This document shows positions 30,505 to 59,568 of a stretch of 64,000 nucleotides of DNA, piece after piece. Location of the stretch: NCBI GenBank assembly GCA_040285855.1, contig JAUFOQ010000004.1, forward strand, positions 620,001 to 684,000, given 5' to 3'. Under the pieces are notes generated by a model. The model searched no databases, had not been told where the DNA came from, and was given only the letters and a program-made list of their open reading frames with translations. Source of the DNA: Eukaryota sp. GEM-RC1. Its lineage: Eukaryota. Made by a program: the position numbers and the translations under genes. How positions within the stretch are numbered: position 1 is the stretch's first letter; each line of letters opens with the position of its first letter.

Positions 30505-30577
30505 GTAGGGTGCTTTAGTAGTTGAATCTACTCATGTTTTTAGTTCAAATTAAGCTGCACCTTTAACACGGAGTCTA

Positions 30578-30710
30578 TGATGTTTATTTAAGATCAACTG
30601 GGATAGCGACAAATACACAAAACTACCAATGTAGGTACACTATAAGAATTATGACAAGTGTATGTACAAGCTGGTGGTCGATCCAATGGGAATGACATTT
30701 TCCGAAGGAT
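30578..30710 (-). repeat. Diverged duplicate of the PP2A B55 3' end and 3' flank
   Basis: tgatgtttatttaagatcaactggg...aagaattatgacaagtg...tggtggtcg.tccaatgg.aatg aligns with 38012-38148. Confidence 0.75.
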
Positions 30711-30754
30711 ATTAGGGGCAAAAACGATTGTTTGAGAATAATTTTTTTGTTGTG

Positions 30755-31087
30755 ATGTCTCTCCCCGAAGGCCTTTTTGGTTGTTTCAACGATTTCAATA
30801 CCGCTGTTGTTGGATGTTTCTGTCCTTGCTATCTCGTAGCCAAGAATCAAGCTGAAGTTGATAACCGTGCGTGTACTGTGTGCGATTGTCTCTGCGGTCT
30901 TCCAGAAGTTGAATACTTCTTACGTCAACGTCTCCGCTCTGAATTTGGTGCAAGCTATAGTGCATGTGGAGATTGCCTCTCTCTAGCTGTTTGTCCTACA
31001 TGTTTTATCTGCCAAAACGCTCGTTTAATCAAGCATAAGCAGCAACACACCGTAAACAACGTGAACTCTTATGTGTCAACTATGTAA
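30755..31087 (+). CDS. PLAC8-family cysteine-rich protein, copy 2
   Basis: Intact ORF MSLPEGLFGCFNDFNTAVVGCFCPCYL...CPTCFICQNAR; paralog of 27249-27600. Confidence 0.9.
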   Translation: MSLPEGLFGCFNDFNTAVVGCFCPCYLVAKNQAEVDNRACTVCDCLCGLPEVEYFLRQRLRSEFGASYSACGDCLSLAVCPTCFICQNARLIKHKQQHTVNNVNSYVSTM

Positions 31088-31299: not shown

Positions 31300-31560
31300 T
31301 TCTATTTTGTCTAAGTTGTTTGGAGGCAACTACTTTTCGGAATTAGGTAGTTCGTTTGATAATTTGTTTTAATAGTGTTTATTTATTTGTACTTATCTTA
31401 TTATGTGTTTTTCTCCGCACATAAATCCGTTTTTTTAATAGATACTTGTGTCACTTTCATTACTTGTTATGGACTTAACCAAATATGGCCGGGTTTCACC
31501 AGCCAGCTAACAAAAATAAAGCTAATTTCTACACAGATACTCCACTCTCTCATCATTACC
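31300..31560 (-). ncRNA. Candidate Fanzor omegaRNA and element right end
   Basis: Directly 3' of the Fanzor stop. Hairpins tggctgg-tgaaac-ccggcca (31486-31505) and ttatgtg-N10-cacataa (31401-31424). Boundaries not determinable from one copy. Confidence 0.4.
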
Positions 31561-34500
31561 ACTCATCCAGTGTTCGAACATGTTCATCATGTTCAAACAA
31601 GCCATCTTGTTTCGATTCCAATACACTTGACTGGGCACTGTGTGCCCTTTCTTTTCTCCCTTCAATCGTTTCGTGACTTCTCCCAGACAATGTTCACTCT
31701 TACACTCTAGTAAGCCATGAGGGTGGATCCATTCTCTTTTCTCTCTTGATTTGGGCTTTGGGTTGACAACCTCAATAGAAGTTTCAAAAACATCTTCATG
31801 ACATTCTGGACACTTGGACGAAGTGTATCTCTCATCATTCATAACTGTTAAAAAACCGTTTCTCTGAAAGAATGAAGTCCAAGTCTTAGTTCTGGATGGT
31901 GGACTGTGTTTTAAGTTGGTGATTGGCTTCTGACCTAAATCACCAATACTTAGTACAATTTTGTCACGACTACCGAAAGTTTTTACAATGCTGTTAACCA
32001 ATTTAGACTCTGTCTTTTGCTTATGGACATGATTTTGGATTTTGTGAATCCTCCATATATGCAAAGCATAGAAGTCTTTAGTTGCATTGTAGTGAATGCA
32101 TTTAGCCAGAATAAACTTTCTAAATTTATTGTAATTAACAGTTTTAGAATTCTGTTCTTCACTTAACCAAGTGTTCCATTTCTCAATTTTCATTGTCACA
32201 GTTATTGGAATATCATCACCTGCTCTCACGGTAGTAGTACCTGATCTCCTTCTAACAAGGTACTGGTGGATTCTTTTATGGATTCTTTTCTTCTTCAATC
32301 GTAAGAAGTTGTATTTCTTCAGAGGATTTTGAGTTTCCCTATTTGATTTAGATGCGAGTTGTAGCATATCTCTCTTTCCAATGTCCACATAAACCATTTG
32401 TTTAGAAATAAAATCAGTCCTATCACATTCATTGAAATATTGTACTTTTACTGAAGCTTTACTTGAATCAGGTTTACATTTCATTCCTTTCAAATCCTTT
32501 CTCACAAATTGAAAACAAATCGAAATTCCATCAGTTACAGCATAGTTGTTGAATTCAAAATTGGCTTTGTGAAAACTTCTGTCATCATAGTTAAACCATC
32601 TTTTCCAGTAATCCTGTTGTTGAGAATGGGTCAAGTTTTTAATCTGATCAGCAGACAAGTAATTAGTCACTTTTGAATGTAAAGGACCAATCTTCTTATC
32701 ATTATTCTTATATCCAAAACAGTGCTTAGCCAGTCCCCAAAGAGTTCTGGTATCTATTGGGAAAAAACAGGGAGTATTCTCTAAACTTAGAGGAATTACA
32801 TTAAACAACTTAGCACCCTTTGATTCCAAGTAATCTGAGATCTGAAGAGAATTTCTAAGAAAATGAAGTGGTTACTCCTGAACTGTGTAAAGTAAATTAT
32901 GGACGTCTACAGTTTCATTGTCGTTTGTAGTGATTGAAGTAGGAAATATGATGTTAAATCTTTGAAGTAATTCTGGAATTTTATCAGCCATGAGAGAATT
33001 GATCTGTTCAAATATTAACATACTGAAATCATCATTAAAAACTTTAGAAACTTCATCAATAAACTTAACATTTTCAGGGTGAGTGGCAGAGTTAAAAGAA
33101 TTAATATACTGTAAGGCTTCATCTCTAGGTCGATACAAAATCTGGTCTTTCAACATCTTTAATCGAAATCTGAAGTAACTAGTGAACTTTTGAGCTTCAC
33201 GACCTGTTAGTCCTGCAAGTTCTGGACCTAAAACCAAATTACGTTTCTGCTTCATTCCCTTTTCAAACTCTTTCTTACCCATTACCATTACTGTATTGAT
33301 AAATCTTTTAATGTACAACTCATAATTGCGGCGAATATTTAGTTCAAACGCAGGCCACATTTCATACTGAGTAGTGTATTCAAAAGCTCTACTGATGTGA
33401 TCAAAATCCAGTTCTGGTATATGACATTGGCCAAATGTATCAGTAACACAGTGCTTATATCCGAGGTAGTTTGAATTGACAGTATAGATTCCTTCACCAG
33501 CAACAAAATCACGAAGATCTGCATCAATTGTTGATATAGGATAATTGTTGTAAATTTTGAATCCATGAACTTCAGATGAAAGATTTCTAATTGAAAGCAC
33601 TGTATGATAAAACAACTTGTAATCAAACTTAGACAAATCTTGTCCAAGACGATAGCGAGCCAACAGATATTCTTTAACACACATTGTAGTCTGTTGTCTT
33701 AAAGCATTGTAGAACTGAGATCCTAAAAGCATGGCATCTTGAACTTCTTGATGTTTTACCACACTAAGAACTGAAGTTTTAATGGAAGCCAATGATTGAA
33801 AAACAATTTTGTCTTTTTGAAATAAAATAAACAATTTAAACGCCAGAATTGAATCATGAAGACAGTAGTTGATTAGAGTTTTCATTCTTTTATCATTTCT
33901 TAAACAATCAACTGGGAGGAAGTGGTCCAAGTCTTTATCCAATTTCAATTTGGGTTCAGAAAGTAAATTCCAAGATAAATTGGCTAGACTACAACCATAC
34001 TTGAGACCAATATGCTTTTTTGCAAACAAGAAGGTATCCAAAACTGTAAAACAATTGTGATCTTTTATGATATCCAGCCATCTACTTTGTAAAGGTAACT
34101 CAACTGGATTTGGATTTGTTAAAAGAGGTCAAGAGCCCACATTCTATTGTCAATAATGGGCAAATCAAAATTGAAAATATTATGGCCAATAAAAGCATTT
34201 GGTTTATATTGACTAACAATGTTAGCGTACGTAACCAATAATTCGTTTTCATTTGGGAAGTCCAAAAGATCTAATTGAAAAGCTGGTGTTTCTGATTCAC
34301 TGAATTTGATTTTATAATTGTAGTCAGTGTAAAGGACGATTGAGTTGTCAAATTGTAATTCACCATTGGATTGCAATTTTGCAATAATGACAGAGATCAT
34401 GATGATTTGTTGATCTGCGAGAAAATCAAGGTCGTGAGCTTCCTTCTCAAAATCATTCATTAACAATCTTCTCTGTTTCAAAGACTCTTTTTCCGTTCTA

Positions 34501-34598
34501 CGATGTTCATTCAATTCTTTGTTCACTCGTGTAGGAATTCTCTCATTGATATTTCTTGTTTCAATATCAATTATAAAAACTGTAGGAAGGGGAGTCAT
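31522..34598 (-). CDS. DEDDy 3'-5' exonuclease-Fanzor (TnpB-like) fusion, ~1025 aa after repairing one indel (~34120) and one in-frame TAA (32872-32874)
   Basis: ExoI IIDIET, ExoII GHNIFNFDLP, ExoIII YCLHD. Then, in the same ORF, a Fanzor-like N-terminus (SIKTSVLSVVK...KEYLL), KLFNVIPL, TDGISICF, RuvC-I VDIGKRD, IGDLG, DERYTSSKCPEC, HGLLECKSEHC and RuvC-III WNRNKMACLNM. Confidence 0.85.
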
Positions 34599-35912
34599 CG
34601 ACAACAGTATCAGTTGCAATGTCAATAAATGGAATTCTTGATTCTTTTTCCTTTTTTCCTTTAACAACTGGAATTTCCTCAAATTCATGCAAAGAGTCAG
34701 TTGAACCTTCAACTACATGCGAACTTTGACATTCTTCGTCAGTTTTTGGAAATTTTGTACAACCACTAGATTGATCATACAGTCTCTGTTGACGTTTAGA
34801 ACCTTGTTCTTGAGGACGATGAATTACTGACGAATGACACTTTTTTGGTTTCCGTTCTAGCCGTCGTGCTTTAGAGTTTTTGACGGATGTGTCAGATGAA
34901 GAAGAATAACTTGACGAAATTTTATTAGTTACTTCTAGAGTTTTACGACGAGATGACTTACGTGTAGTACTTTCAGAAGGGTCAGAAGATTTATTTCTTT
35001 TCCAGCAGGTTGATTAGTTTTGGGACATTGTGTCTTTCTTCTACCAGTGAGCAACAGATCGATGTTGACCAGTGTGAGTGTCAATGATGAGATTCAAAAT
35101 CCTTTTCCTCATTTCTAGAGCATCATATTCATTGAAAAGTCGAACTTGAAGTAGAATTACGTTGATATCTAGTGACGCTTGTTCAAATTCAACAAATTTA
35201 CTCATGTACTCTAAAATAAAAGGTCCACAGTCACCTTGTGTTTGGTGTTGAGTAACGAAAAGCCTTCCTAAATAATGATAATTGAAAGGAAAAAACACAC
35301 GCTCATGAAATTGTCTAATAACATCTTCGCAATGACCTAAAGTATCTAAAACTTTTGATGTTGATTTTGAGTAAACATTGGATCAAGGGAATAGTATCTT
35401 TTTCTCTTAATATCACAAATCAGCAGAGTCCAGTGAGTAGCTTCATTATTAAAGATACCATCGTTTATTGGAATAAACAAATATTGTTTGGTTGGTGGTC
35501 TGGAAGAATTCATCAAATCTAAGGTTTCTTGAAATAGTTTGTGAAGATGCCAACGATCTCTTTCTTCTTCAGCCAAATTGTCCTCTGTAATTGCAAGTGA
35601 CAATGCTTCACACGAGAGATATGGCCATTTAACACTATGTTCAGTAATGTACTGTCCATAAAAGTCTACAATAGTGGTCCATAACCAACTATGAGGTAGC
35701 AAAGAATCAATATTGGAATGATTTTCAATTAGATCGGGTCCAGGATTAGACTCAATGTCCCCGTCCATAGTCAAATCACGGAGAAATTGTGATGACTGGA
35801 GATTTATTTTGGATTTTGAAATAGCACAACAAGAACCACTACAGTATGGAGTACTATAACAAAAAAGAAATAGAAGAGATTTGAGGATCGAGGGACCCAT
35901 GAAAATCTTCAT
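34567..35912 (-). CDS. Leader ending in a 2A motif + Ulp1/SENP8-like (C48) cysteine protease + Ser/Lys/Arg-rich region; frame-disrupted
   Basis: LRDLTMDGDIESNPGP; protease motifs SWLWTTIVDFY, FIPIND...THWTLL (His), YSLDP (Asp), QHQTQGDCGPFI (Gln/Cys). Indels near 35350 and 35000-35070. Confidence 0.8.
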
Positions 35913-36078
35913 AAAGACCTGACGGTCTTGATTGAAAAGACAAAAACAAAAAAAGAAATAGAAGAGATTTGAGGATCGAGGGACCCATGAAAATCTTCAT
36001 AAAGACCTGACGGTCTTGAGTGAAAAGACAACAAACCCAGCAAAGGAGTGATCTGAGGATCAAAAGACCCATTGAAGG
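35858..36078. repeat. 88-bp tandem repeat: two near-identical units plus a diverged third
   Basis: gatttgaggatcgagggacccatgaaa at 35878 and 35966, variant at 36050. The two full units contain the inverted repeat aagacc-tgac-ggtctt. Confidence 0.85.
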
Positions 36079-36333
36079 CTCCCTGACAGTGGGGGAGACG
36101 AAGCACAGTGAGATATCTAACCAACACGAAGTCGATAGACATCTCACTAAGCGAATGATCTTAAATTTCTGTTTGAACTATTTGTGGTTAATGTCTACAT
36201 TGACATGTTGACATCTTGACAAGTTTGAGAATATGTCACTGATACAATAACAGTTGATGTCGTACTAATTGTAACTAACAGTATATGGTATATGATGTGA
36301 AATTGGAAAAAAGAAAACAATATTTATTCTATA

Positions 36334-36956
36334 TCGTAGGTGTCCCAATACAAGCAAGGTTCCAATACAAGCAAGGTTCCAATACAAGCAAGTAAAAGTG
36401 TTTGCTTGTATTATTCTGCTGCATTCAGGATGTTGAGCGAGTTATACTTCAATACAAAGTGTATTCAAATGAATTACAACGTATAGAGCTGTGAACGAAC
36501 TTCATAGTGTCCACTTGGATGCTTACGTGTTGTTGTTGCTAATTTTTACCCGAAGAACTCGATGGAGTTATTGTATTGTTTGACATTTGTAAAATCAGAA
36601 GCACAAAATGGCCTATCAAAAATCCAATTTATGAAACAATAGGCAATAGAATCCCTGTCAATAGTACTTTGCTCCTATGCAGACAAATATTGTATACTTG
36701 TAGAACAAATTAACATACTGTTGTTAAAGCATGTGTCATATTTATGTATTGTTATATATTTTTGTTCTACAGTATTTATAATACAGTGTACAAGTAGCAT
36801 TACGAAATAGAGTATGTGATCCAGTAATATATCGAAATCAAAGGTGTCGTCGCTTCACCGTATAATAGGGTCCCAATACAAGCAGGTCCCAATACAAGCA
36901 ACAAAATGTGTTTGCTTGTATAAGATATAAAGTTGCTTGTATTGGGACACCTACGA
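36334..36956. mobile_element. Tc1/mariner/pogo-type MITE
   Basis: 24-bp perfect TIR tcgtaggtgtcccaatacaagcaa flanked by TA on both sides; subterminal repeats of ccaatacaagca. Confidence 0.85.
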
Positions 36957-37560
36957 TAATTACAAAACTATGTGTATAAATGATTCCTCATCACTGTGGA
37001 AAACTTACCTAAATCCATGAAGCAATCTAAATGACATCATCCTTGGTGTCGTCGTCATGACAGCTCCAATTGGCGTTTTAAGAGCTCCTCGTCGTTAAAA
37101 GCACATAACCTTGCAGCTTGTGCTGTCAACATTGCAAGTTTTGATTTATTAAAATCAGTGTCGCAGTTGTCTGAAGTATTAGAGTAATACCCGACCAAGA
37201 CCTCCCACATTTCATTGGTTTTGCGAAGGTTTAGATCTCCATAAATAATATTTGCATACCTGGATCTTGTCAACATAACATTCAGTCGACGATAGTCTAC
37301 TAATCCCTCCGAAACACCACTCCCAACTTTGGTCCTTATATTTATCTGACCCTACTCTCCATGTTCTCACTTCACAGTCTTGTTATGCGGCGTTCATAAA
37401 AACACACCTTTATCTAAAAGGAATACTGCGTGATTGTTATGGGAAATGGACAGTACTAACTCAACGTGAACTAGTACTACACGTAACTGCATCACTATTT
37501 AATGAGTATATATCAATGATGATGTGTGAAATCACCAAATCGGTCTGTAACGGTAACATC

Positions 37561-37893: not shown

Positions 37894-38084
37894 ACGTCTA
37901 TCATTGCGTGTCCTATTTTTGGTCATTTGTAAACTTCAGTGTTAGTCAACCCAATCTACCCATCAACAAACTGATACGTAGTACTCACATGTACAGATTG
38001 TTTACATTACATGATGTTTATTTAAGATCAACTGGGGCAGCGATAAATACAGAAAACTAACTATTTAGGTACACACTAAAAGAA

Positions 38085-39451
38085 TTATGACAAGTGGTAT
38101 AGGTATAAGTTGGTGGTCGCTCCAATGGCAATGGTATTTTCAGTAGGATGCCAAGATGAAGTCAAAATCTTACGTGCAAAATCGTCATTTCCAAACTTAA
38201 CATCCTGCATAAGGTTCTTTGACTTGGAAGATCGAGATCCATACTTTGGACGTTTGTTGATAGATCTTGAGGCCTCCAATGTCGTAACATTTTTAGACTG
38301 AGAATCATAGACATTGAACAAATGTCCATAAGACCCTGTCAAAAACTTAGAGTCGTCACCTGACCATTGTACTTCAAACTTATCAAAGATACACTCATTC
38401 TTATAAACATCACAGAGATTAGATCGTAGTTGTTCGTGTACAGACACCGTTTTAACAGGGCGACTGTCCATGTTGACATCCCACAGTTTAACAGTAAGAT
38501 AATCACGTGACAAAATGTAACGTCCATTATTGGAAAACTTGACGTCACTTATACTGTTTAAGATCTCATTGAAATAAGAGTTATTAGGATTTGAAGGACG
38601 CGGAGGAAGCGCAAACCTTTTCCCATGTTGGTTACAGATAGCGGATTGCCGCATATCCGCAAGATTGATGATCCCCTTGGAAGTTCCGTAGATGAAGTGA
38701 TTACAATGAGCGGGAGAGAATGACGCGGTTGTAATGACTTCAGACAGTTCTTCCATGTTGTCGGGCTTGATGTCTACTATAGAGAAGGCTTCGCTGTTAT
38801 CCCCTAGATGCCACAAATGTATCCGTAGATCATCCGCGCTTAGAAAAGTTTCCCCGTCATTGTTGAGGGACATCGAGTTGACAGAGTACGCGTGTGCATT
38901 GGCGAAGACACGTTTACACGACGCGCTAGGCGCTGAGGATTCGGGTACAAGTTTAGGGACACGCACAGAAGATTTAGGCGTGATAAAACTATCACGCTGA
39001 TAGACTATACGTTTGGATGCTTTATCTTGAACTTTCCACAGTTTCATTGTTTTGTCATTGGTTGTTAAGAGCAGTGTTGAGTCGTTATGAGGCGGCAGCC
39101 AGCAGATCTTGTTGATACGTTCATCGATTTCTAGAGATCTAAGATAATCAAATTCAGCAAGGTGAGACTGGAACTCGGAGTAATAACGGTATTCCACACT
39201 GCGCAGAGCACGGCGAGCCTGAAATGAATGAAGAGATGTACCTCAAACCTTAGAGTCGTGGACTCGTTTAAAAAGAACAACTCTACCACCTCTATCTCCA
39301 ACAGCAAGCATGTTTCCGTCTTGATTGAACTGAACAGTAGAGATTATATCGGCTGGGGAAAGAGCCACAAGATGTAAAACAAACCCTCAACAATATCCTC
39401 AAGTTTGGCACGATCCCCGAAGACTTGACAGAATTTCCATTCTTCAGACAT
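38085..39451 (-). CDS. PPP2R2: PP2A regulatory subunit B55 (WD40)
   Basis: [59 protein letters not shown]. Introns at 39353-39384 (32 nt) and 39219-39248 (30 nt). Confidence 0.95.
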
Positions 39452-43520: not shown

Positions 43521-43799
43521 CAGCTAATAGCTTATAAATGTCAAATAATAGTGACCTGGTTAAGGAGAGAAAATTATGTTGAAGTTCTTTTCAAAACTTC
43601 AGCGGTTTACCATAATGGTAGACCACGAGAGAAATTTGACAACCACTGATACAGCTCATGGTTGTCTAGGGATTGCTTATACTGATTCACAGTAAACTTT
43701 TTGAGAAATTGTCAACCATGGTCATGTAACTTAATGACGAATAATTTCTGAAACTTCGCCAAAATGTAATAATTTACGTAAATTTAACTTCATTGTTTT

Positions 43800-44375
43800 T
43801 CAGAAAGGCAAAGAAGGATATGGCCTTTGAAAAACTGAAAAAAGTTTTAAGTTCATAAGTGCATCTTTTATACAGTAATTGGTCAATTCAGCTCTTTCTT
43901 CAGTTGTTTGCATTAGAATAGAATTGCATTTGCTGAGTTTAGATTTTCCTTCAGCTAAAATACTTGAGGAAACACTGTTGAGACTGTTGAAGTTAAATTC
44001 TTCTTGGCAAAAGAACAACAGTCATATCGTCATGAATGATGGTAGAATGGATTTTTAAAATTGTCTCTCTTTGAAGAATGTATGGTAGATCAAAGAAATC
44101 AGAATAAAAGCTTGAAAGAAAATCTGGTGAAAATGAATTAAACAAAAATAAGGAAACTCGAAATCAAAAGGGATTCAGATCTAAATAAAAACTATTACTT
44201 TCAGAATCTAATGTTGTAACCTTTCCAAAACTAAGCAAATGGTTTTCAACATTAAAATTCTTTTCATTTATAAAATAACAAAATGAATAACCAATCATGA
44301 CGATCGAAACCACAAAACTTCCTTCATCAAATTCATTGGGAGTTTCAATATCAACTACTGAAAGGGTGGACATTT
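43800..44375 (-). pseudogene. Relic of a PolB-type DEDDy exonuclease domain related to the one at 33840-34598
   Basis: MSTLSVVDIET (ExoI), DFFDLPYILQR (ExoII), SLNSVSSSIL, LTNYCIKDALMNLKLFSVFQ (ExoIII; compare LINYCLHDSILAFKLFILFQ). Confidence 0.7.
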
Positions 44376-45183
44376 TGGCAGTTGATTTGACTCTTATATA
44401 TGGATCCACTGAAGGTGAAGCTTTTAATTTTCGCGTATGTTGATACCACGAGAACGTAATTTGACAATAGTGTTTCCATTTCTATATTCATTTTGAAAAT
44501 AGACACAGACATGTTAGAGGGAACCTCAATTCTATAGCTTTAAACATATACGTAATTCTTTGTGATTCCTACCACTTCTAACTTGGAACAAGCATCATAT
44601 TGACGATTTGATACACCTCAGTATTGGAAATACATGTGGTATTAATATAATGGGTTTGGATTTTTGTGAATTTGTCGCTATACATACCATTTAATGACGT
44701 CCGTACTGATAACAAGAAACTATTTTTAAATAAAACGGTATATTATGTTACAAACATCTTGGTACAGTACTAGACATTGTTTAAATATTCATTTAACAAT
44801 TGCACATTGAGTATTTTCGTGGAGTATTTTGAAGGTCTGGTCCATGGTTCACAGATTTTTATTGGGTCTGGTCTGTAAGTATAAAGACTGTTTCCGACCT
44901 TTGCCCATCACCAAATTGTATCATGGTAGATCAAGAGTAGATGTAGAGCATTTAATATCATTTAACTACTAGTTGGTATTTCGTTAATTTTTGACATAAC
45001 AAAGTTAATTAAAAACAAAAATAAGTATGTTAATGACTCTTGAAAAGTGAAGTCTACAAGTGACTTGAGTTGGAGTTTCCCCATCCTACTTCTAACCAAA
45101 AATACCATGGTCCCTCTTTTTTAAAATCTTAATTTATCATGAATGAAACCTTTGCACCTGTCATCACTGCAGTATTCCGAGTA

Positions 45184-51780: not shown

Positions 51781-52104
51781 GAACTGTCGGTCGGTGATTT
51801 TCAAACCGTAAAATTAAAATAGCGTATTTATAAAATTGTCATAAATACGACAGGGCTGGTCAAAAAATTGAACCGTAAATTGAACTTAAAAGAAAGATGA
51901 AAATTTAGTATAATTTAAAATTTTCCAGAATAGTTGGATCGTGTATATGGCGATTGAAAAGGTTCTGCTTTTTGCTCTAAAAGCTTTATTCCAATAACTA
52001 AAGGAAATACAATGAGGAAAATATTTGCATTTCATAAAGCTGGTCTCAAGACATATCTTGTTAATAAAACACTGCTCTAAGTGGACCAAGGAGAGAGTTC
52101 ATGG

Positions 52105-52605
52105 GGAAACATGGAGCCAAATGTCCAAATCTGGATAGGCCTAGAAAGAAGATAAGAAGAAGAAGAACTTGAGAAAGGAGCTGAAGGGAAACCGTGGGGT
52201 TTGCTCAAGTGTCAGCACTACAACACTATGTGGGACAGGGATTTCAATTGGACAACCAATATAAAGGAAATCATGAAGGTAAAAATAACTGGGAAGCCCA
52301 GGCCAACTATTCTCAGCAGAAGCTTATCTGAACAAATGATTTCTGAGATTAGTTGTGGACAAGGTCTTGAGACTGTGGAGAATGAGGAAGAGGTCCTTTG
52401 ATTGAAGATGAAAGTGAAGAAGATCAGTTTTGATCGATCAGTCTGAAACTTAGTTCTGCAAACTGTTTAGTCTACCTTAACCAGTAGGCAGCATCTAGCA
52501 TTGATTCACTATCAGAACAGACATATTCCCAAAAAAGGGAGGAAATACGTGCATTGAGGAATGTAGATCAAACTCCAGAATGATTTTACTGAGATCTTAG
52601 CATCT
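52105..52605 (+). pseudogene. Relic of a Fanzor C-terminus (second family) plus 3' non-coding region
   Basis: KPWGLLKCQHYNTMWDRDFNWTTNIKEIM...GKPRPTILSRS: zinc-finger half, RuvC-III WxRD, and a G..RP..L.R tail as seen in Fanzor C-termini. Confidence 0.7.
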
Positions 52606-52631: not shown

Positions 52632-55600
52632 ATGTATGAGGAACATAAAGCGGGTCTAGGATTCACGTGTTCCACTAAGGTTCAACATCATCTTGTTTCT
52701 TACTCCAGGATATTTCGTTACTTTGTGATGCTGAAGAAACACTTCCACATCCTCAACTGTCCGATCAAGTTTACGAGCTTCAGGAGATTGTAGGCAACAG
52801 GTTTGCGTCTATTATAGTTCCCTTGTTTCTAACAGTTAAACCTGTTTCCGATTCTACTCAAAATACAGGTAGGTGACAACCCAACAATTTTTCTGACTGC
52901 AGTTTTCAATATTGGCTTGTCTGATTCCGTTGTTCAAAAGCTGGTTGAAACAACTGGTAATTCAGATTTCATTTATGATTGCTACCGCTATTTTCTAGAG
53001 TCGTATGCTACGGTTGTGCTGGAAATCCCCAGGGAACAGCTTCTCCTAGTGTGCAACAACTGTAAGGCCGAATATGATCAATCACACGATGGTGATGAAC
53101 CTCCTCTGCTCTTTTCTATTACTCAAAACTATCTCTCTTTAATCCGCTCCTTAGGTCATGATATTCCCCAAGATCCTTGTGACCAGCTTAAAATGGTTGT
53201 TCAAAAGCTCTCTGAACAAAGTGCAGAATGTGCTTACTCTGATCTTTCTGTTTCTCTTCTTCTTACAAACCAAGATGGGCAGGCTGTTACTTTTGACCCT
53301 GTCACTCAGAACTACATTGCTGTAACAGTATCTGAGTTTGCGAGTCTCAAATCTACTCCTTTGGCTGAGTCCTCTGACTCTGACTTCCAAACACTACTTG
53401 ATCGCTTCAATTCTTCTCCAGACTCTTCCTTGGAGTGCGATTCCTCTTTACTCGATGGTATAACTCTTATTGAAATGTCCACAGACCCTAAGCCACTCTC
53501 TGCAAATCTCTTGTTAGACAGACCACCAAAGAAGAAAGAGATAAAGAAACAAGAGATTTTTAAATTACTTGCGATTGCTGCTGGTATTTGCTTACTTGTT
53601 CTGCTCCTTGTTCTGTCGTTTATGTTTGTCTTCAGAACAAAGGTTTTCAATGTTTCTGGTATCATAACACATAACTCAATTGCACTTACAAATGTTAATG
53701 TTTCCCTATCTTCCATTGATTTTGGGATGTTTCAAACCTTTACTGATGAAGAAGGAAGATTCGTACTTGAAAATTTGGCGTACGGTTCTTACGTTTTCCA
53801 CTTACAGCTCGATGGATATATTCCTAAATCATTTCCTTACAACGTGGTCAAAGATGATGATGCCCTTCAATTTTCTCTGGACTTGGTGGTCTTCTCTCTT
53901 GAATTCAATGTTCTAGATGCTGAGACCTTATTGGCAATCGATTATCCTCGAGTTAAGTTTGTTTTGGACCATGATGACGTTTTTATAATTGATGGTGACA
54001 TCAATGGAACCGTTTCTGTACCAGAGTTGATCCCTGGTGTCTATGAAGTAGTTGTTATGCATCCCAGTTACTTGGAAAAGACAATGGTAATTGACGTAGA
54101 TTCTTCCAACCTGATTACTGTGGTGTTGAATCCCCATGGATTCACTGTAGACTTTACCTTGGGAGATCTAACGGGATATGATAAAACCTTTGGAGTACAT
54201 GTTGAGATTCCGTCCAGTATTAACGGTGTTCAAATAGTCTCAATTCACAACAAGGCTTTTCAAAATTTTGAGTTGGTTTCTGTTGTTATTCCAGATTCAG
54301 TAATTGAACTTGGGCTTGAAGCCTTTGCTGATAACATCTTGGAGAACGTTACTATTGGAACCAGTGTTAATGTCATTGGCATTGAATGCTTTCGAAACAA
54401 CTCTTTGAAATCCATTGTGATCCCCGATAGTGTTGAATCTATTAATGCATCAGCATTTTCCAATAACAAACTGGAAACTGTTGTTCTTGGAAGTAGTTTG
54501 GAAATCATTCAGAGCAGTGTTTTTAAAGACAATCACATCACGTCATTGACTATTCCTGATGTTGTTTCACGAATCGAGCGGTCAGCGTTTGAGTCTAATA
54601 GCATAGTAAACCTTACTCTGGGAGGTGGATTGGAATTCATTGGTGAATCAGCTTTTGCTCTCAACTTTTTATCTTCCCTCTCGATCAATGCCTCAAGAGT
54701 AGGTGAGAACGCTTTTTATGGCAATATTATCACAGAGCTAGATTTTGGTTGTGGGGTTCGAGTTATTGGTGATAGTGCCTTTGCAAACAATCAAATAACG
54801 TCACTCACTTTTGATGATGGAGTTACTGTTATTGGAAAACATGCCTTTGAACAAAATTTCATAAGTCATGTTATTTTTCCAAACACCCTTTTGACTATTG
54901 ACGAGTCTGCTTTTGGAGTATAACGGCATGTCCACCGTTGAGTTTAACCCCACTTTAAATGAAATCAGATCAGCAGCTTTCCGAAACAACCAGCTTCTAG
55001 AAGTAATTATTCCCGACTCTGTCACCGTTCTTGGAACATCCGTCTTCGAATCCAACAATTTGACTTCTGTTACGCTGGGTGCTAATTTGACTGTCATCAG
55101 TCACTCTTTGTTCCGGTCTAATTATCTTGTTGATGTTTCAATTCCTGATAATGTTCAAGTAGTTCAATCCTTTGCATTCCAGAATAATCTTCTTGTGTCT
55201 GTTAATTTATCTATTAATCTAAAGGAAATTGGGAAATATGCCTTTGAGTCTAATAGCATAGTAAACCTTACTCTGGGAGGTGGATTGGAATTCATTGGTG
55301 AATCAGCTTTTGCTCTCAATTGTTTATCTTCCCTCTCGATCAATGCCTCAAGTGTAGGTGAGAACGCTTTTTATGGCAATATGATCACAGACCTGGATTT
55401 TGGTTGTGGGGTTCGAATTATTGGTGATAGTGCCTTTGCAAACAATCAAATAACGTCACTCACTTTTGATGATGGAGTTACTGTTATCGGAAAACATGCC
55501 TTTGAGCAAAATTTCATAAGTCATGTTATTTTTCCAAACACCCTTTTGACTATTGACGAGTCTGCTTTTGAGTATAACGGTATGTCCACCGTTGAGTTTA

Positions 55601-58600
55601 ACCCTACTTTAAATGAAATCAGATCAGCAGCTTTCCGAAACAACCAGCTTCTAGAAGTAATTATTCCCGACTCTGTCACCGTTCTTGGAACATCCGTCTT
55701 CGAATCCAACAATTTGACTTCTGTTACGCTAGGTGATAATTTGACTGTCATCAGTCACTCTTTGTTCCGGTCTAATTATCTTGTTGATGTTTCAATTCCT
55801 GATACTGTTCAAGTAGTTCAATCATTTGCATTCCAGGATAATCTTCTTGTGTCTGTTGATTTATCTGTTAATCTGAAGGAAATTGGGGAATATGCATTTG
55901 AGTCTAATAGCATAGTAAACCTTACTCTGGGAGATGGATTGGAATTCATTGGTGAATCAGCTTTTGCTCTCAATTGTTTATCTTCCCTCTTGATCAATGC
56001 CTCAAGTGTGGGTGAGAACGCTTTTTATGGCAATATGATCACAGACCTGGATTTTGGTTGTGGGGTTCGAGTTATTGGTGATGGTGCCTTTGCAAACAAT
56101 CAAATAACGTCACTCACTTTTGATGATGGAGTTACTGTTATCGGAAAACATGCCTTTGAGCAAAATTTCATAAGTCATGCTAATTTTCCAAACACCCTTT
56201 TGACTATCGACGAGTCTGCTTTTGAGTATAACGGTATGTCCACCGTTGAGTTTAACCCTACTTTAAATGAAATCAGATCAGCAGCTTTCCGAAACAACCA
56301 GCTTCTAGAAGTAATTATTCCCGACTCTGTCACCGTTCTTGGAACATCCGTCTTCGAATCCAACAATTTGACTTCTGTTACGTTAGGTGATAATTTGACT
56401 GTCATCAGTCACTCTTTGTTCCGGTCTAATTATCTTGTTGATGTTTCAATTCCTGATACTGTTCAAGTAGTTCAATCCTTTGCATTCCAGGATAATCTTC
56501 TTGTGTCTGTTGGTTTATCTGTTAATCTGAAGGAAATTGGGAAATATGCATTTGAGTCTAATAGCATAGTAAACCTTACTCTGGGAGGTGGATTGGAATT
56601 CATTGGTGAATCAGCTTTTGCTCTCAACTGTTTATCTTCCCTCTTGATCAATGCCTCAAGTGTAGGTGAGAACGCTTTTTATGGCAATATGCTAACAGAC
56701 CTGGATTTTGGTTGTGGGGTTCGAGTTATCGGTGATAGTGCCTTTGCAAACAATCAAATAACTTCACTCACTTTTGATGATGGAGTTACTGTTATTGGAA
56801 AACATGCCTTTGAGCAAAATTTCAATAAGTCATGTTATTTTTCCAAACACCCTTTTGACTATTGACGAGTCTGCTTTTGAGTATAACGGCATGTCCACCG
56901 TTGAGTTTAACCCCACTTTAAATGAAATCAGATCAGCAGCTTTCCGAAACAACCAGCTTCTAGAAGTAATTATTCCCGACTCTGTCACAGTACTTGGAAC
57001 ATCCGTCTTCGAATCCAACAATTTGACTTCTGTTACGCTAGGTGTTAATTTGACTGTCATCAGTCACTCTTTGTTCCGGTCTAATTATCTTGTTGATGTT
57101 TCAATTCCTGATACTGTTCAAGTAGTTCAATCCTTTGCATTCCAGGATAATCTTCTTTTGTCTGTTGATTTATCTATTAATCTGAAGGAAATTGGGAAAT
57201 ATGCGTTTGAGTCTAATAGCATAGTAAACCTTACTCTGGGAGGTGGATTGGAATTCATTGGTGAATCAGCTTTTGCTCTCAACTTTTTGTCTTCCCTCTT
57301 GATCAATGCCTCAAGTGTAGGTGAGAACGCTTTTTATGGCAATATGATCACAGACCTGGATTTTGGTTGTGGGGTTCGAGTTATTGGTGATAGTGCCTTT
57401 GCAAACAATCAAATAACGTCACTCACTTTTGATGATGGAGTTACTTTTATTGGAAAGCATGCCTTTGAGCAAAATTTCATAAGTCATGTCATATTTCCAA
57501 ACACCCTTTTGACTATTGACGAGTCTGCTTTTGAGTATAACGGCATGTCCACCGTTCAGTTTAACCCCACTTTAAATGAAATCAGATCAGCAGCTTTCCG
57601 AAACAACCAGCTTCTAGAAGTAATTATTCCCGACTCTGTCACAGTACTTGGAACATCCGTCTTCGAATCCAACAATTTGACTTCTGTTACGTTAGGTGAT
57701 AATTTGACTGTCATCAGTCACTCTTTGTTCCGGTCTAATTATCTTGTTGATGTTTCAATTCCTGATACTGTTCAAGTAGTTCAATCATTTGCATTCCAGG
57801 ATAATCTTCTTGTGTCTGTTAATTTATCTATTAATCTGAAGGAAATTGGGGAATATGCCTTTGAGTCTAATAGCATAGTAAACCTTACTCTGGGAGGTGG
57901 ATTGGAATTCATTGGTGAATCAGCTTTTGCTCTCAATTGTTTATCTTCCCTCTTAATCAATGCCTCAAGTGTGGGTGAGAACGCTTTTTATGGCAATATG
58001 ATCACAGACCTGGATTTTCGTTGTGGGGTTCGAGTTATTGGTGATAGTGCCTTTGCAAACAATCAAATAACGTCACTCACTTTTGATGATGGAGTTACTT
58101 TTATTGGAAAGCATGCCTTTGAGCAAAATTTCATAAGTCATGTCATATTTCCAAACACCCTTTTGACTATTGACGAGTCTGCTTTTGAGTATAACGGCAT
58201 GTCCACCGTTCAGTTTAACCCCACTTTAAATGAAATCAGATCAGCAGCTTTCCGAAACAACCAGCTTCTAGAAGTAATTATTCCCGACTCTGTCACAGTA
58301 CTTGGAACATCCGTCTTCGAATCCAACAATTTGACTTCTGTTACGTTAGGTGATAATTTGACTGTCATCAGTCACTCTTTGTTCCGGTCTAATTATCTTG
58401 TTGATGTTTCAATTCCTGATACTGTTCAAGTAGTTCAATCATTTGCATTCCAGGATAATCTTCTTGTGTCTGTTAATTTATCTATTAATCTGAAGGAAAT
58501 TGGGGAATATGCCTTTGAGTCTAATAGCATAGTAAACCTTACTCTGGGAGGTGGATTGGAATTCATTGGTGAATCAGCTTTTGCTCTCAATTGTTTATCT

Positions 58601-59568
58601 TCCCTCTTAATCAATGCCTCAAGTGTGGGTGAGAACGCTTTTTATGGCAATATGATCACAGACCTGGATTTTGGTTGTGGGGTTCGAGTTATTGGTCATA
58701 GTGCCTTTGCAAACAATCAAATAACGTCACTGACTTTTGATGATGGAGTTACTGTTATCGGAAAACATGCCTTTGAGCAAAATTTCATAAGTCACGTCAT
58801 ATTTCCAAACACCCTTTTGACTATTGACGAGTCTGCCTTTGAGTATAACGGCATGTCCACCGTTGAGTTTAACCCCACTTTAAATGAAATCAGATCAGCA
58901 GCTTTCCGAAACAACCAGCTTCTAGAAGTAATTATTCCCGACTCTGTCACAGTACTTGGAACATCCGTCTTCGAATCCAACAATTTGACTTCTGTTACGT
59001 TAGGTGATAATTTGACTGTCATCAGTCACTCTTTGTTCCGGTCTAATTATCTTGTTGATGTTTCAATTCCTGATACTGTTCAAGTAGTTCAATCATTTGC
59101 ATTCCAGAATAATCTTCTTGTGTCTGTTGATTTATCTATTAATCTGAAGGAAATTGGGGAATATGCATTTGCAAACAATGAATTATCATCAATTGACTTC
59201 CCTGACAATATTACTGTTATTGGTGAAAGTGCTTTCAAAAACAACGTGTTGACTACAGTTACGATTCCACCTAATCTTCAAGTTATTGAAACGTCAGTTT
59301 TTGAAAACAATAAGATATCAACAATTGATTTTGGTTCCGTCTCCATTATTGGAGAGCGAGCTTTTTTCAAAACCATATGATGACCCTGTATTTTCCCAGT
59401 ACGTTAACAGAATTTAAGAATGAGGCGTTTGGAGAATCAGTTGCGAACATAGATATTGGTGATAATGTCATTTGTGCAGTTGGTGCCTTGAGGGGAAACT
59501 TTTGTGAAGCTTACAGTATCCATGGTAAAGGTTGGTATTACAGAATGTTGAATACTTGGAACTACTAG
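52632..59568 (+). CDS. BspA-like LRR (LRR_5) type II membrane protein, copy B, ~2300 aa; PPDK-like N-terminus
   Basis: ATG at 52632; introns 52680-52708 and 52869-52902 restore the frame. TM LLAIAAGICLLVLLLVLSFMFVF follows the basic KKKEIKK; TDEEGRFVLENLAYGSY beta-sandwich repeats; IPDSVxxIGxxAF repeats. Indels at ~54915, ~56824 and ~59365. Confidence 0.9.
54591..59170 (+). repeat. Intragenic tandem array of 7 x 654 bp (218 aa, ~10 LRRs each)
   Basis: Unit starts (gagtctaatagcatagtaaacc) at 54591, 55246, 55900, 56554, 57209, 57863 and 58517. Confidence 0.95.

Follow-up and report, generated by a model that had tools for sequence, protein, structure and literature searches.

What does a 2A (StopGo) ribosome-skipping sequence do at the head of a Fanzor element, and which protein does it set free? 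Natural use of 2A sequences outside viruses is known mostly from LINE retrotransposons, with a few host genes. The window analyzed here, a 64,000-nucleotide stretch of contig JAUFOQ010000004.1 from Eukaryota sp. GEM-RC1, carries a 16-residue 2A motif on the minus strand (35736-35783), inside an open reading frame at 35346-35912 with its ATG at 35912. An earlier note on this DNA had described an exact D(V/I)ExNPGP match that closes a 58-residue leader, lies shortly before the first protease motif, and belongs to a Fanzor element. That description agrees with the analysis throughout: the 16 quoted residues are encoded where the note placed them; the glycine of the G|P junction is residue 58 from the ATG; the tryptophan of the first Ulp1 motif (35682-35702) is residue 18 of the predicted downstream product, the Pfam C48 match beginning at residue 76 of the ORF (E 8e-6); and window positions 31525-32871 match the Fanzor1 proteins of Parasitella and Spizellomyces (E 7e-16 and 1.4e-15). 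The role that the note assigned to the motif has to be revised. It had tied the 2A to the protease, which would thereby receive a fixed N-terminus; however, the proteins P0105, P0104, and P0075 carry the same 2A without Ulp1 behind it, and in intact relatives such as P0040 what follows the 2A is the entire Ulp1-exonuclease-Fanzor1 chain, about 1,460 residues long.

The identity of the motif can be assessed from its residues and their context. A six-frame scan of the window returned it as the only match to [DG][VI]ExNPG or NPGP. The core octapeptide conforms to the (D/G/C/N)(V/I)ExNPGP form of StopGo/2A sequences and is in frame, with an open frame on both flanks and conservation confined to the motif; upstream stands the DLTxDG context (motif 4), with G at p11, D at p12, and S at p15. 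The 2A core alone is inactive, and the 2As of LINEs span active to inactive (PMC3708506). In the DLTxDG class, characterized by D at p12 and S at p15, skipping of almost 100% has been measured in reticulocyte lysate, and a rare E-to-H core variant is more than 95% active (PMC12846837). Given the six-frame composition of the window, the core octapeptide would be expected by chance 3.0e-5 times, and the core together with the upstream DLTxDG 5e-12 times; with the motif also conserved in 36 relatives, a chance match is so improbable as to be negligible.

The earlier note had made its case depend on the motif being kept among element copies, and kept it is: of 127 proteins retrieved, it is present in 36 members of the family beyond the one in the window, NPGP being unaltered in 35 and replaced by NLGP in one, a count in which 2A-positive matches are favored because two of the searches had 2A-bearing queries. 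The matches that brought in P0079, P0104, and P0105, three of the four distant members, lay in exonuclease or Fanzor stretches and not in the 2A. When nine subfamily representatives are anchored without gaps at G|P and compared in all 36 pairs, the 17-residue 2A (positions -16 to +1) has a mean pairwise identity of 0.68, against 0.08-0.13 in the upstream flank and 0.05-0.06 in the downstream flank (where the ungapped comparison understates Ulp1 similarity); whole proteins of the subfamilies are merely 19-27% identical to P0040. Eight positions of the 2A are invariant in all nine, position -16 is always F or W, and positions -16 to -10 follow a W/F-x-R/K-D-L-T pattern. Apart from the free position and V/I exchange, the sole core substitution is E to H, in two of the nine. 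Judged from these aligned residues, the motif is a genuine StopGo sequence of a known class, and it is under selection in the family. Exceptions occur: P0072 has about 318 residues ahead of its exonuclease and no 2A, and P0098 retains only the last five residues of the motif.

What the 2A precedes is most evident in the relatives, which are known as annotated proteins only, their start codons and introns being gene predictions. The closest, 89-98% identical, bear the NCBI label 'Eukaryota sp. GEM-RC1', and a second set is labeled 'TZLM3-RCL'; both organisms are free-living skoliomonad metamonads (PMC11316075). Under both labels, the order repeat leader - 2A - Ulp1 protease - linker - PolB-type exonuclease - Fanzor1 is found in a single reading frame of about 1,500-1,580 residues. 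In a 23-member cluster headed by P0040, at least seven proteins (of 15 listed) are 1547-1583 aa long and have this order in one frame with a degenerate exonuclease; P0040 itself contains Pfam C48 and a Fanzor-type TNB domain, and the exonuclease-Fanzor alignment covers its residues 552-1506. The exonuclease-Fanzor part forms an 18-member cluster dispersed over several contigs, and a phmmer search with P0007 against 1.84 billion representatives gave 58 matches, with P0105, P0104, P0075, and P0079 among them. The protease varies in number: P0038/P0052 and P0079 are 2A-Ulp1-exonuclease, P0042 is 2A-Ulp1-Ulp1-exonuclease, P0034 is 2A-Ulp1-Ulp1, P0104 and P0075 are 2A-exonuclease, and P0105 (1473 aa) runs from leader and 2A through a linker to exonuclease and Fanzor1 with no protease at all. 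Since protease-less members keep the 2A, it marks the start of the whole enzyme and not of the protease. As portrayed by these predicted proteins, this is a multicopy mobile element family with a 2A heading one long gene. A second, internal 2A before the exonuclease was considered and rejected: the motif of P0007 and its first 26 residues match an unrelated protein, P0095, so P0007 is probably a chimera or a gene-model join.

The window copy (Table 1) is a broken element copy. Its Fanzor1 is interrupted by a premature stop at 32872, a codon for Tyr in 11 relatives, and has lost a short internal piece near 32290; the His-Asp-Cys triad and oxyanion Gln of Ulp1/C48 proteases are all there, split over two frames. 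Some of the single-base breaks may be assembly errors, because other genes in the window also have frame breaks. The leader's ATGs lie in each full 5' repeat unit, and the 88-nt unit of this copy leaves the upstream repeats and ATGs in a different frame from the 2A; the 5' repeats of the annotated sister copies P0016 and P0024 have a 29-residue, in-frame period. The 181-nt region 3' of Fanzor1 folds no better than its shuffles (z -0.55), and no Rfam family reaches its gathering score there. Host genes flank the element: PLAC8 at 30728-31087 on one side and, on the other, a gene for a WD40 protein (38085-39197), presumably a PP2A B subunit.

Table 1. Positions within the window of the parts of the 2A-headed element copy
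Feature	Position	Strand	Remark
5' tandem repeats	35861..36072	-	two full units (spacing 88 nt) and a partial one (spacing 84 nt)
Leader upstream of 2A	35787..35912	-	T-rich DNA
2A/StopGo, DLTxDG (motif 4) class, 17 residues	35736..35786	-	core and upstream motif
Predicted skip site	between Gly 35739-35741 and Pro 35736-35738	-	
Ulp1/C48 SUMO-type cysteine protease	35050..35702	-	frame break near 35350
Ulp1 catalytic motifs	His 35424-35438; Asp 35406-35420; Gln/Cys 35224-35238	-	
Shared frame end after Ulp1	34935-35013	-	also in P0016, P0018, P0025-P0027
Low-complexity S/K/R-rich linker	34591..35048	-	about 26 codons missing near 35048; break near 34590
PolB-type 3'-5' exonuclease (DEDDy)	33853..34589	-	PF03104 E 2e-14; frame break near 34125
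Exonuclease motifs	ExoI 34557-34571; ExoII 34164-34187; ExoIII 33853-33867	-	
Fanzor1, full-length	31522..33780	-	fused directly to exonuclease
RuvC triad	D 32374-32388; E 31825-31839; N 31606-31620	-	
Small G+C hairpin just past Fanzor stop	31487..31504	-	possible omega-RNA start, a lead only

Several other features of the window were recorded. A 627-bp MITE-like element (36332-36958), bounded by perfect terminal inverted repeats of 26 nt and also bearing subterminal repeats of 17 nt, sits just upstream of the 2A element, and a dispersed repeat of about 135 nt, 84% identical between its copies, occurs at 30577-30710 and 38011-38149, one on each side of the element region. A gene at 52833-59377 contains seven 654-nt tandem leucine-rich repeat units, with frame breaks, and has an inverted paralogue at 1-2168; we take the repeats to be of the BspA-like family. 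A decayed second PolB-type exonuclease remnant of the same family lies at 43730-44410 on the minus strand (76% identical to P0112 over 87 residues), with no 2A near it, and a decayed Fanzor1 C-terminal remnant, nearest to the P0040/P0105 type, lies at 51985-52353 on the plus strand.

The C-terminal part of the enzyme chain is Fanzor1 by sequence and by fold. In a profile built from 24 proteins, five of them stand-alone Fanzors, positions of about 90-268 match PolB exonuclease domains and positions 267-941 match solved Fanzor1 proteins (SpuFz E 2.7e-91); in a Foldseek search with the AlphaFold model of P0007 (mean pLDDT 76, pTM 0.55), the top six matches are SpuFz and PpFz, with polymerase exonuclease domains next. 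These matches to profile and model indicate an exonuclease joined straight onto a full-length Fanzor1, the whole of which corresponds in sequence and fold to the solved proteins. The RuvC triad is rearranged, its E standing immediately ahead of the zinc finger, and reads D-E-N in the window's subfamily and D-E-D in P0040 and P0105; GtFz1 is active with a D-E-N triad (PMC11423790). In the P0040 and P0052 subfamilies, the catalytic motifs of the exonuclease are degenerate. The possibility of a family B polymerase, or of a Polinton-like element, raised by a feature-based atlas search, was rejected, the exonuclease alone being present: no polymerase palm domain follows it, and the profile positions are all taken by exonuclease and Fanzor1. 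In a Fanzor tree of 27 rows made by a quick method, the exonuclease-fused rows fall into two supported clades whose union is without resolution, so that a single origin of the fusion is neither shown nor excluded.

The junction between protease and nuclease differs among subfamilies. In the window's subfamily, the frame after Ulp1 stops at the same place in the window and in all five annotated copies that reach there, and the exonuclease frame, with no Met ahead of its first catalytic motif, overlaps this end. In a second subfamily (P0029-P0036), seven proteins have a common frame end after Ulp1, which P0037 and P0042 read through. Because the frame end is common to sister copies, Ulp1 may be unfused to the nuclease in those subfamilies; the shared end itself could reflect an assembly error common to the copies, a mutation that they inherited, an intron missed in annotation, or programmed frameshifting.

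The leader, by comparison with the 2A that closes it, appears disposable. Annotated leaders longer than 40 aa vary in length between 52 and 336 residues, and a single subfamily spans 71-336; no two subfamilies have related leaders, and 13 of 34 rows have in-frame tandem repeats of 23-66 residues. The lengths and repeats justify the earlier note in calling the leader variable and repeat-derived. On the other side of the junction, the first Ulp1 tryptophan lies 12-18 residues into the product in six of the seven Ulp1-bearing subfamilies and 31 in the seventh, close enough behind the 2A that the skip would fall at a domain boundary. A leader could instead be a signal peptide, with partial skipping leading to dual targeting, as for the 2A-like signal sequences of sea-urchin NLR proteins. 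There are precedents for such an arrangement (PMC4981915; PMC12846837), and all ten leaders examined contain a mildly to strongly hydrophobic stretch (maximum 12-residue Kyte-Doolittle mean 1.3-2.8). Yet the hydrophobic maximum of the window leader is 1.75, compared with 1.80 +/- 0.56 for stop-free base shuffles, 51% of which reach 1.75; the leaders are rich in F, S, and L and poor in A, as T-rich DNA predicts (the shuffle test at the DNA level concerning the window leader only); and lengths of up to 336 aa with tandem repeats poorly suit a signal peptide. We therefore regard a signal-peptide function as quite unlikely.

The reading that we consider likely is that the 2A fronts a single long gene (leader, 2A, optional Ulp1, exonuclease, Fanzor1) and would release the variable, repeat-derived leader, giving a fixed proline start whichever ATG is used. 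Translation would begin at an ATG in the repeat region, and the ribosome would skip the Gly-Pro bond and continue, so that the leader would be left behind and proline would become the fixed N-terminus of the enzyme chain. The 5' repeats may expand and contract for a reason at the DNA or RNA level, for instance as promoter-like monomers, and the 2A would make the protein indifferent to such change. The released chain would then likely act at empty target sites, where Fanzor1 would make an RNA-guided cut, the exonuclease would trim or resect the cut ends, and the Ulp1 protease would take off SUMO-type marks; the role proposed for Ulp1 domains in transposons fits here (PMC2836005). Cutting and resection would favor repair from an element copy, which agrees with the restorative-homing view of Fanzors (PMC13565253), and first-time insertion would probably depend on a transposase or reverse transcriptase encoded elsewhere.

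The 2A could also act mainly as a dose limiter, with ribosome stalling and drop-off lowering the output of a DNA-cutting protein and the clean N-terminus a side effect. Dose limiting has been proposed for the 2As of LINEs (PMC3708506), a 'reduction' class makes up 50% or more of LINE-associated 2A-like peptides (bioRxiv 2026.06.17.732966), and a nuclease-exonuclease fusion would plausibly need restraint. However, the motif belongs to the near-complete skipping class of PMC12846837, and reduction is tied, in the title of bioRxiv 2026.06.17.732966, to leucine content, whereas positions -16 to -10 here read W/F-x-R/K-D-L-T. Dose limitation as the main function is in our view rather unlikely; it is in any case compatible with release of the leader and does not exclude it. 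We are similarly doubtful of a more ambitious proposal, that this is a new class of transposase-free element in which a self-processing polyprotein of 2A, SUMO protease, exonuclease, and Fanzor1 would cut and resect sites into which host repair copies the element, and in which the frame change that two subfamilies have behind the protease would set the ratio of protease to nuclease.

How the element moves, and where its 5' end came from, can be addressed in part by what its proteins and ends contain. No transposase domain was found in the family proteins scanned, no reverse transcriptase or APE family of the kind that marks non-LTR retrotransposons in window ORFs or family proteins, and no match to a Helitron Rep or helicase. 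Between the presumed end regions, neither inverted nor direct repeats indicative of TIRs or target duplications exceeded chance, and no inverted match of 9-mer or longer was present; the ends of the element were not found. Searches of viral contigs with the Ulp1 alignment or P0007, and of metagenome contigs with alignment A1, gave no related loci. This 2A class, by comparison, is common in RNA viruses and LINEs: seven viral loci and 97 metagenome stretches bear it, and among 16 locus ORFs scanned, six have APE and/or RT families. None of 103 such loci, many only a few hundred bases long, matches the Ulp1, exonuclease, or Fanzor queries (E 0.01). Two of the metagenome loci, L054:967-9042 (-) and L059:1813-9597 (+), encode LINE-like polyproteins, about 2,600-2,700 aa long, in which an OTU protease and a reverse transcriptase occur together with an internal motif-4 2A. 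E-to-H 2A variants recur in metagenome ORFs (L014, L015, L048, L055, L064, L075, and others), and the four of these that were scanned have no Pfam family.

Two further proteins bear on the origin of the 5' module. P0041, with a dsRNA-binding domain, bears a near-identical 2A. P0095, an unrelated protein, has the same layout as the element family, a leader of 52-residue tandem repeats followed by a 2A, along with a CCHC knuckle recognized by eye; it has no Pfam family, an atlas search gave no usable match, and it is possibly a retroelement ORF1/gag. Because P0095 shares this layout, and P0007 joins its first residues and 2A to an exonuclease-Fanzor, 5' modules may be swapped among elements, and capture of the module from a retroelement is plausible from these resemblances. 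The 2A could in that case be a passenger, part of a 5' module of repeats and 2A that came from a retroelement or RNA virus and has fallen out of use, a possibility to which the spread of the motif class through RNA viruses and LINEs, the near-identical 2A of P0041, and the swappable modules hinted at by P0095 and P0007 all lend some color. A passenger would decay like its flanks, yet the 2A retains 68% identity between subfamilies and varies only where variation is tolerated, and we consider a disused 2A very improbable.

The position of the 2A is known from LINEs, whereas for the element and its polyprotein no description was found in the literature. A 2A in a Fanzor element did not come up in our searches, which reached neither Repbase nor subscription journals, and among the matches listed neither did a natural exonuclease-Fanzor fusion or any relevant title on 2A-like sequences in DNA transposons. 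The words 'exonuclease' and 'protease' are absent from PMC3627910, PMC10711439, and PMC13565253; Fanzor is absent from the main text of three recent 2A surveys, and the accessible part of the supplements to two of them has no match to these organisms, Fanzor, or this 2A peptide. LINE is among the associations described for Fanzor1c (PMC10530073). With this conserved 2A, StopGo recoding reaches metamonad protists and a further kind of mobile element, one that encodes Fanzor and has no reverse transcriptase, and the short, repeat-built, non-conserved leader makes the purpose of an N-terminal 2A directly testable. An RNA-guided nuclease here occurs naturally joined to a proofreading-type exonuclease and a SUMO-type protease. 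Intact, near-identical copies of this fusion are numerous and show no transposase, which makes it relevant to the way Fanzors promote the spread of elements and to the design of genome-editing tools.

Compared with known systems, the element combines familiar parts in an unfamiliar order. Its 2A resembles motif 4 of RNA-virus StopGo sequences as described in PMC12846837, with the same core, G at p11, S at p15, W/F-x-R/K-D-L-T-x-D-G upstream, and the same rare E-to-H variant; unlike the viral motif, it is known here from sequence, in a chromosomal, reverse-transcriptase-free element, at one site near the N-terminus. That placement is shared with APE-type LINEs (L1Tc, Ingi, CR1, L2, Crack, and Rex1; PMC3708506), which likewise have a single long ORF with a short leader and a 2A before the first enzyme domain, and some LINE polyproteins with a 2A carry deubiquitinase-type domains (bioRxiv 2026.06.17.732966; also L054 and L059). 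Unlike those LINEs, the element has no APE endonuclease or reverse transcriptase, and its downstream product is Ulp1-exonuclease-Fanzor1. The full-length fold, rearranged RuvC, and zinc finger, the many dispersed copies, and the D-E-N triad of active GtFz1 are as in described Fanzor1 elements (Bao and Jurka, PMC3627910; PMC10530073; PMC10711439; PMC11423790; PMC13565253). The element differs from these in that Fanzor is the C-terminal part of a polyprotein of 1,300-1,580 aa headed by a 2A, with a fused PolB-type exonuclease and often Ulp1, and in that no transposase of the usual partner families was found in the element. Finally, as in the Ulp1-carrying transposons Ginger1 and Mutator treated in PMC2836005, the Ulp1/C48 domain is an optional passenger, present in 0, 1, or 2 copies; in those transposons it is fused to or beside a DDE transposase, whereas here it follows a 2A and precedes an exonuclease-Fanzor1.
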